Positions 33,294-35,028 of a stretch of 64,000 nucleotides of DNA are shown in pieces. Origin of the DNA: Escherichia coli (lineage in GTDB: Bacteria; Pseudomonadota; Gammaproteobacteria; Enterobacterales; Enterobacteriaceae); NCBI RefSeq assembly GCF_003334305.1, contig NZ_QOWS01000003.1. The stretch is one strand, 5' to 3'. Positions within the stretch are counted from its first letter, which is position 1. Each line of letters begins with the position of its first letter. The translations under genes and the position numbers were made by a program. The notes under the pieces were generated by a model that was not told where the DNA came from, made no database searches, and saw nothing but the letters and a program-made list of their open reading frames with translations.

Positions 33294-34815
33294 GGCTTAT
33301 CACGCGCGGCTGGCGTTCCAGAATACGAGTGTTGCGTGCGGCTTCTTCGCCCAGCCAGGTGGTGTTGGTGCGTGAACCTTCGGCGCGATATTTTTCTAAG
33401 TCCGACAAACGCACCATATAACCGGTAACGCGAACCAGATCGTTACCGCTGACATTGGCGGTAAATTCACGCATTCCGGCTTTAAAGGCACCGAGGCAAA
33501 GCTGTACCAGTGCCTGCGGGTTACGTTTGATGGTTTCGTCGAGCGTCAGAATGTCGCTGATGCCGGAATAATAATAAGCATGATGCGGGGCGACAGTTTG
33601 CAGATGGGTGATCGGATCTGGCTCATCGCCATACGGCAAACGCGCGCCCGGCGTGGTGCCGATATCGGAACTGATCCCCGACTGTGCGTGTAACATGGCG
33701 CGTTTTTGCCAGCCATATTTCACGGGGGTATTGGCGACAAACTCCGCCAGTTGCGCGCTGATGCGATAACCCACTTCATTTGCGGCGGCTTCTTTACCGT
33801 AGCGCGCGGCAATCCCTTCTTTCTTACACAGCAAGTTAACCGCTTCCGCCAGCCCATACATGCCAAACATTGGCACAAAACGTTCAGGGTTAATCAGCCC
33901 TTCTTTCACCAGGAAGCTATTCTCAAAGAAGTGTGATTGTTGATAGAGGAATTCACACCGCGCATCGATGATGGCGATCTGCTGCTGGCAGTAGTGCGGT
34001 AGAGTGCGCGTAAAGAAGTCATCCAGCGATTCGCTGCGCTCGGCAATGGCTTTCAGGTTAAGGCGTACCAGCGTGCTGCCACCACCCGCCAGCGGCAGTG
34101 AGTTGTAACAGCTCACAATCCCGTAGCCCCCTTTTGTGAAAATTTTATCATGCACCGGACCGTTGGCGATGTGCGGTTTGCTACATTCACAGATGTTCTT
34201 CGCCACTTCCAGCAGCAGGTCATCAGGGGGGATTTCAGGATCGTAGATAAAGGTCAGGTTCGGTGAAACCTGCTTCAACTCTGCGTCTGCACGTAAGATC
34301 GCGCGGGTAATGGGCGAATCAGACGGGCCGATATTGGCGTGCATAAAGGCGTCTGGCAGGGTTCTGTCGAGGTAACGCCAGAAACGTTTTATTCGAACAT
34401 CGATCTCGTCTTGTGTTAGAATTCCAACATACGGTTGCAACAACGCATCCAGTTGCCCCAGGTAGACCGGCATCGATGTGACCGACGGTACGTGGTGGTA
34501 AAGAATGGTCAGCAGAGAGAGTGCGTCATCAAGATCTTTCGCGCCTTCCAGCTCCAGCCATTCGGAACCGTTCGCCAGAAAACGGGCGTAATCGGGTAAG
34601 ACATAGCGCGGTTTGTACGGCGCATGACCTTCAAACATATCGCAGATTACACCCTCATCCAGCGCGCGGCGGGCTTCGGCAGGAAGCTGCGGATAAGGCA
34701 GATTGTTTTCTGCTTCCAGAGCCAGAAAATGGCGCTTCTGCTCCGGGCTAAGCACTGGGCTGGTGACAATTTGCTGGCAACGTTGTTGCAGTGCATTTTC
34801 ATGAGAAGTGGGCAT
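33265..34815 (-). CDS. yjjI: glycyl-radical-family protein (DUF3029)
   Basis: 516-aa ORF; overlaps yjjW by 29 nt. Confidence 0.85.
34414..34429 (+). promoter_or_regulatory. DeoR operator O1 at deo P1
   Basis: TGTTAGAATTCCAACA, one mismatch from palindrome TGTTAGAATTCTAACA; contains TAGAAT -10-like hexamer; exactly 599 bp upstream of the second operator. Confidence 0.7.
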
Positions 34816-34924
34816 CTTCTTTTCCTTTTATGCCGAAGGTGATGCGCCATTGTAAGAAGTTTCGTGATGTTCACTTTGATCCTGATGCGTTTGCCACCAC
34901 TGACGCATTCATTTGAAAGTGAAT

Positions 34925-35005
34925 TATTTGAACCAGATCGCATTACAGTGATGCAAACTTGTAAGTAGATTTCCTTAATTGTGATGTATATCGAAGTGTG
35001 TTGCG
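34925..35005 (+). promoter_or_regulatory. deo P2 CRP/CytR control region
   Basis: Two CRP-like sites (TTTGAACCAGATCGCATTACAGTGATGCA and AATTGTGATGTATATCGAAGTGTG) spaced about 50 bp apart, the arrangement described for CytR-CRP regulated deoP2. Confidence 0.6.
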
Positions 35006-35012
35006 GAGTAGA

Positions 35013-35028
35013 TGTTAGAATACTAACA
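35013..35028 (+). promoter_or_regulatory. DeoR operator O2 at deo P2
   Basis: TGTTAGAATACTAACA palindrome 45 bp upstream of deoC ATG. Confidence 0.7.

Follow-up and report, generated by a model that had tools for sequence, protein, structure and literature searches.

The DNA analysed here, a 64,000-nucleotide stretch of an Escherichia coli chromosome (the window), contains three sites that, at a probability of roughly 0.96, are the natural DeoR operators O1, O2 and OE of the deoCABD operon. The deo operators are a founding example of repression by DNA looping, and the finding of O1 and O2 in this sequence is correct and already known, since it concerns the textbook deo operator system. The additions made here are modest: OE is located, the dual constraint on coding and operator sequence is quantified across 74 species, a private O1 allele is described, and a predicted yjjI promoter is placed inside the O1-O2 loop. 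For the identity of the sites with those of K-12, their spacings and the selection on the DNA we rely on the sequence, and for DeoR binding, looping, the inducer and promoter activity on the literature on K-12.

Gene Content and Strain Background

The 2.2-kb yjjI-deoC region of the window is 100% identical to that of E. coli strain A7, an isolate from orangutan faeces, in which the genes are annotated as yjjW, yjjI and deoC-deoA-deoB-deoD. Matches at 95% identity or more are present in 5424 of 5426 complete E. coli genomes, and relative to K-12 MG1655 the window differs by 11 nucleotides in yjjI and by a single nucleotide in the intergenic region; the locus is orthologous to the characterised yjjI-deo locus of K-12. 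The deoR gene itself, which lies outside the window, is found in 5425 of the 5426 genomes of the collection. The yjjI-deoC region is also present on three records of this collection labelled as plasmids, which are probably chromosomal segments or mislabelled replicons. The features discussed below are listed in Table 1.

Table 1. Features of the yjjI-deoC region, in window coordinates
Feature	Position	Strand	Basis or remark
yjjI CDS, YjjI-family glycyl radical enzyme; hosts O1 and OE	33265-34815	-	516 codons
deoOE, upstream DeoR operator TGTGAAAATTTTATCA, yjjI codons 222-227	34135-34150		position and conservation
deoO1, DeoR operator TGTTAGAATTCCAACA, yjjI codons 129-134	34414-34429		gene nt 387-402
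deoP1 extended -10, TG-T-TAGAAT (predicted)	34414-34422	+	read from sequence
T->C at O1 position 12; yjjI AGA->GGA, R131G	34425		relative to K-12
Putative yjjI promoter: -10 TACAAT (34854->34849) and FNR-like site	34849-34889	-	conserved blocks, 71-sequence intergenic alignment
deoP2 distal CRP site TTTGAACCAGATCGCA	34927-34942		conserved block, 71-sequence intergenic alignment
CytR operator TGCAA-AC-TTGTA, with a CRP site on either side	34952-34963		consensus match; conserved in alignment
deoP2 proximal CRP site TGTGATGTATATCGAA	34980-34995		conserved block, 71-sequence intergenic alignment
deoO2, DeoR operator TGTTAGAATACTAACA	35013-35028		same sequence in K-12
deoC CDS, first gene of deoCABD	35073-35852	+	ORF and annotation

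Identity and Spacing of O1 and O2

O1 and O2 each deviate at one position from the palindrome TGTTAGAATTCTAACA, and they are its only matches at up to three mismatches in the 64-kb window. A composition-aware estimate predicts ~0.0005 sites at no more than one mismatch per 64 kb, where two are observed, and shuffled sequence yields a mean of 0.17 sites at up to three mismatches. Against the 16-bp palindrome TGTTAGAA-TTCTAACA, O1 and O2 have one mismatch each and OE four; in O2 the imperfection lies at position 10. The orthologous positions in K-12 MG1655 hold the perfect palindrome TGTTAGAATTCTAACA at O1 and TGTTAGAATACTAACA at O2, and 4967 of 5424 E. coli genomes match a 36-mer containing O2 exactly. 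Measured from start to start, the two operators are 599 bp apart (35013 - 34414), and deoC begins 60 bp past the start of O2.

These values agree with the published system, in which deoP1 and deoP2 lie 599 bp apart and are locked together via DeoR looping (PMC3334521), two quoted DeoR palindromes match the K-12 O1 and O2 sequences (PMC5326754), and the O1-O2 loop of ~600 bp has been measured in vivo by means of a loopometer (PMC8053113). The assignment of the two sites as deoO1 and deoO2 thus follows from the orthologous K-12 sites, the quoted palindromes, the 599-bp spacing and the in vivo looping literature taken together. The first-pass annotation had described two near-perfect DeoR palindromes at these coordinates, equated their distance with the published one, and placed the upstream site within the coding sequence of the divergent yjjI gene; all three statements hold, with one mismatch per palindrome, the arithmetic above and a position of O1 inside the minus-strand ORF, and the comparison with published deo sequences bears them out for both palindromes (PMC5326754) and spacing (PMC3334521).

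In the proposed mechanism, O2 would cover the -10 region of P2 and O1 that of P1, with OE serving as an auxiliary site, and one multimeric DeoR would bind two or three of the operators, looping out 279, 599 or 878 bp of DNA. Looping would raise local occupancy and keep RNA polymerase from both promoters, and deoxyribose-5-phosphate would release DeoR; at P2, two CRP dimers would in addition act as activators and CytR as an anti-activator. Because O1 and OE arose within the divergent yjjI, the codons at both sites would be used doubly, for coding YjjI and for binding DeoR.

The Third Operator, OE

Measured from start to start, OE precedes O1 by exactly 279 bp and O2 by exactly 878 bp. Its sequence is the same at the orthologous position in K-12, and 5068 of 5424 E. 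coli genomes carry an exact copy of a 36-mer containing it. With four mismatches from the consensus, a site of this quality is at chance level on sequence alone (~1.9 expected per window), so the identification is based on exact position and conservation rather than on the sequence match. Valentin-Hansen et al. (1986) and Dandanell et al. (1987) reportedly gave precisely 279 and 878 bp for these intervals. Natural deo looping is described as reaching ~900 bp (PMC4217526), and OE as lying ~300 bp further upstream of O1 (PMC8053113).

The earlier suggestion that OE should be sought a further 878 bp upstream of O1 is wrong, 878 bp being the distance from OE to O2 and 279 bp that from OE to O1; OE was missed at that stage because the one interval had been taken for the other. 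A location 878 bp upstream of O1 (~33536) was rejected, as that neighbourhood offers merely six-mismatch sites, such as TGCCGGAATAATAATA at 33561, and the published distance is the ~300 bp cited above.

A Private O1 Allele

The O1 substitution listed in Table 1 is recorded in one strain: the 36-mer with C at O1 position 12 occurs in 1 of 5424 E. coli genomes, that of strain A7, and the canonical 36-mer with T is exact in 4485. Four divergent E. coli strains that were sampled all carry the perfect O1 palindrome with T, and only their flanks vary. Outside E. coli, both Hafnia species carry exactly TGTTAGAATTCCAACA and Edwardsiella likewise has C at position 12. At the protein level, Proteus, Hafnia and Edwardsiella have Gly131, and the species compared carry G, R, K or I at this residue. 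Since Gly131 and C12 are both present in other genera and residue 131 is variable, the substitution would be expected to lower DeoR affinity modestly at most.

Affinity for the O1 of this strain could still be lower, as position 12 departs from the perfect palindrome, and the most serious alternative to an intact three-operator system builds on this point. It holds that the private T12C change weakens DeoR binding, leaving looping to O2-OE and P1 partly constitutive, with more basal deo expression and more antisense transcription across the 5′ part of yjjI. The broken palindrome accords with this proposal, as does the uniqueness of the allele among 5424 genomes, which suggests a recent, perhaps mildly deleterious change or else a sequencing error; an assembly error at 34425 is possible as well. 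However, the identical O1 in both Hafnia species and the C at position 12 in Edwardsiella argue against it, O2 is itself an imperfect palindrome, and positions 10-13 in the right half vary among the conserved O1 and O2 sites of 74 species, implying that position 12 is probably tolerant. We therefore consider a functional weakening of O1 somewhat unlikely.

The operators being palindromic, each also contains an extended -10 when read along the other strand, and the O1 variant destroys this minus-strand reading (TGGAAT).

Constraint on Coding and Operator Sequence Across Species

The comparative set, built from one genome per species with YjjI, comprises 80 loci, of which 74 have deoC as the divergent neighbour, two are truncated and four, all from Proteus, lack an adjacent deoC. 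The arrangement of operators within the yjjI coding sequence is kept in the 74 species, which belong to Enterobacteriaceae and Hafniaceae and include Escherichia, Citrobacter, Salmonella, Enterobacter, Lelliottia, Kosakonia, Kluyvera, Hafnia and Edwardsiella. An O1-like site is present at yjjI nt 387-402 in 74/74; the OE stretch (nt 666-681) is near-invariant in all 74 and within four mismatches of the consensus in 64 of them, and in the Enterobacteriaceae sampled, deoC has an O2-like site 50-74 bp upstream. Within the operators, positions 1-9 and 14-16 are almost invariant across the 74 species, the former without exception save for position 6 in two of them, and positions 10-13 are variable. 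The O1-O2 spacing varies between 567 and 675 bp and is most often 599-603 bp, which rules out a strictly conserved distance of 599 bp or a conserved helical phase. This variability fits published observations that DeoR looping tolerates differences in distance and works up to 5 kb (PMC4217526, PMC8053113).

The yjjI codon alignment was scanned in windows of six codons for third-position entropy, blind to the operator positions. Among the 74 species, the lowest value in the gene falls on the O1 codons (129-134; 0.047 bit, with a gene mean of 1.15) and the second lowest on the OE codons (222-227; 0.112 bit). The O1 codons GTT AGA ATT CTA ACA are synonymously invariant wherever deoC adjoins, and even the rare codon AGA is kept. 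In Proteus, the O1 residues V-G-x-L-T are recoded (GTG GGT GAG CTC ACC, GTG GGG AAT TTG ACG and similar), the peptide at OE is largely different, and both embedded operator-like sequences are absent. These Proteus genes (loci L079-L082 of the set), which do not stand beside deoC, are a useful natural control. The pattern shows selection on the DNA itself at O1 and OE, of the kind that operators lying within a gene would impose.

Constraint from the YjjI protein or the yjjI mRNA, with the palindromes as an incidental outcome, would be another source of such conservation. The peptide motifs V-x-I-L-T and D-K-I-F-T are indeed conserved, and the low entropy of the nearby codons 141-146 is largely due to a protein motif, KRFW, which is kept in Proteus. 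However, third codon positions are essentially frozen only where deoC adjoins, and the V-G-x-L-T of Proteus is written in other codons; residue 131 changes among species and the DNA nevertheless remains operator-like; O2 shows the same 16-mer in non-coding DNA; and binding and looping have been published for O1 and O2 (PMC8053113). DeoR footprints covering O1 and OE are also reported for K-12. This explanation is accordingly very improbable. A chance recurrence of the 16-mer, or dispersed REP- or IS-related repeat copies unrelated to regulation, has the bare fact of the repetition in its favour and is more improbable still, in view of the ~0.0005 sites expected per window, the lack of further operator copies in the 64 kb, the conserved position of the operators with respect to both genes across the 74 species, and the absence of any Rfam or repeat-family match at the operators. 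Read as DeoR operators, O1 and OE provide a clean comparative case in which two operators buried in the coding sequence of a neighbouring gene freeze its synonymous sites, the rare AGA codon included.

Promoters and Activator Sites of the deo Operon

The left half of each of O1 and O2 is an extended -10 motif, TGnTAGAAT, which for P2 comprises TG at 35013-14 and TAGAAT at 35016-21, overlapping O2. O1 and O2 are thus predicted to overlie the -10 regions of the tandem deoCABD promoters, P1 and P2 respectively; for P1 we take this overlap from the literature of Dandanell and Hammer (1985) and Valentin-Hansen (1986). Transcription from P1 would start near 34429-34430. P1 and P2 were both missed by a scan for consensus sigma-70 promoters and terminators, as each has a poor -35 hexamer. 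The sole consensus promoter-like match that it returned in 34050-35120 lies over OE, on the minus strand and in the sense of yjjI (34142-34169; TCGCCA-16-TAAAAT with TG).

Upstream of O2, tandem CRP sites flank a CytR operator (Table 1); the block at 34927-34942 is the one that we take to be the distal CRP site of deoP2. The spacer of the proximal CRP site carries G->A at 34988 relative to K-12. Tandem CRP sites at deoP2 and the CytR consensus TGCAA-N2-3-TTGCA have been described (PMC3454398), and a CRP ChIP-seq peak located between yjjI and deoC in ETEC H10407 covers the motif TGTGATGTATATCGAA (PMC4287617). The same study reports a second peak, within yjjI, whose CRP motif is the reverse complement of TGTGACCGACGGTACG; the latter occurs here at 34477-34492, ~50 bp into the predicted P1 transcript.

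Two further stretches of yjjI near P1 may be mentioned. The window of codons 141-146 (34376-34393) ranks fourth lowest in synonymous variation and lies ~38-55 bp upstream of the P1 start, with the rare codons CGA ATA conserved beside KRFW. Its reading as a fourth regulatory element, an UP or -35 element of P1, was set aside, as the conservation is mostly explained by KRFW, which is also found in Proteus; the rare codons CGA ATA leave such an UP-like or -35 element at most suggestive. A weak hairpin resembling a terminator, GCAACGTTGTTGC, precedes a T-rich tail in the leader of P1 (34777-34799, plus strand; antisense to yjjI codons 6-13), such hits being at chance level in number. An Rfam scan of the deo region gave no match.

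Antisense Geometry and a Predicted yjjI Promoter in the Loop

From the position of O1 in the minus-strand yjjI gene, a transcript started at P1 would run antisense through yjjI nt 1 to ~386, then over the yjjI promoter region and on to P2. The geometry supports the first-pass proposal that transcription from deo P1 would be antisense to yjjI.

The intergenic region contains a putative promoter for yjjI on the opposite strand. The conserved TTGATCC at 34876-34882 includes TTGAT (34876-34880), an FNR half-site. Relative to a transcription start predicted near 34842, this FNR-like half-site is centred at about -41, and together with TACAAT it is placed as in a class II FNR promoter. The FNR ChIP peak at yjjI presumably corresponds to ~34908. 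In published work, yjjI is among the FNR ChIP targets and is directly activated under anaerobic conditions (PMC3688515). An FNR-dependent yjjI promoter is therefore likely to lie inside the 599-bp O1-O2 loop, facing P1, as predicted from these conserved blocks.

The location of this putative promoter in the O1-O2 loop, opposed to P1, makes DeoR control of yjjI conceivable. DeoR, and hence deoxyribose-5-phosphate, may also control yjjI-yjjW, either by trapping the promoter in the loop or by switching antisense transcription and collision from P1, although we regard this as unlikely and put it forward tentatively. If true, such control would give YjjI a functional link with the anaerobic breakdown of deoxynucleosides. 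To our knowledge, the yjjI-yjjW glycyl-radical enzyme operon is uncharacterised, and the placement of its predicted promoter within the loop bears on both the regulation and the function of yjjI.

Relation to Known Looping Systems

The closest counterpart is the K-12 deoCABD region (deoOE-O1/P1-O2/P2), to which the window is orthologous, with three operators at the same 279-, 599- and 878-bp spacings, identical O2 and OE sequences, and the CRP and CytR sites at P2 in common. The window differs from it by the T->C change at O1 position 12 (yjjI R131G) and by the change at 34988 in the proximal CRP spacer. DeoR looping at K-12 deo is reportedly the subject of work by Dandanell and Hammer (1985), Valentin-Hansen et al. 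(1986), Dandanell et al. (1987) and Amouyal et al. (1989).

The deo system resembles the lac O1-O2-O3 and gal OE-OI loops in that distant auxiliary operators cooperate through one multivalent repressor, and, like lacO2 in lacZ and galOI in galE, some of its operators lie within coding sequence. Unlike lac and gal, the deo operators reside in the divergent neighbour yjjI and not in the regulated operon, one loop locks two promoters, and the loops are longer, at 279-878 bp; DeoR also differs from the lac and gal repressors in being a higher-order multimer (PMC4217526). The DeoR sites of nupG and tsx, which lie outside the window, share the repressor and the palindrome family (PMC5326754).

Other Features of the Window and Its Relatives

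Several observations concern sequence beyond the yjjI-deoC region. The yjjV-yjjW intergenic gap is 112 bp in the window (32318-32429) and contains about one copy of a REP-like unit; in K-12 (locus L001, 1256-1669) the gap is 420 bp, with 4.1 tandem copies of a 101-bp REP-like unit. In strain A7, a helix-turn-helix pseudogene with an internal stop lies downstream of deoD, between deoD and lplA (locus L002, 12337-12600). Rfam matches in the window comprise the thr operon leader, one tRNA and three naRNA4 elements, which are REP-derived (58519-58638, 24339-24422, 24562-24644, 45427-45505 and 49823-49900). The presence of the thr operon leader indicates that the window spans the point at which the E. 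coli chromosome map starts by convention.
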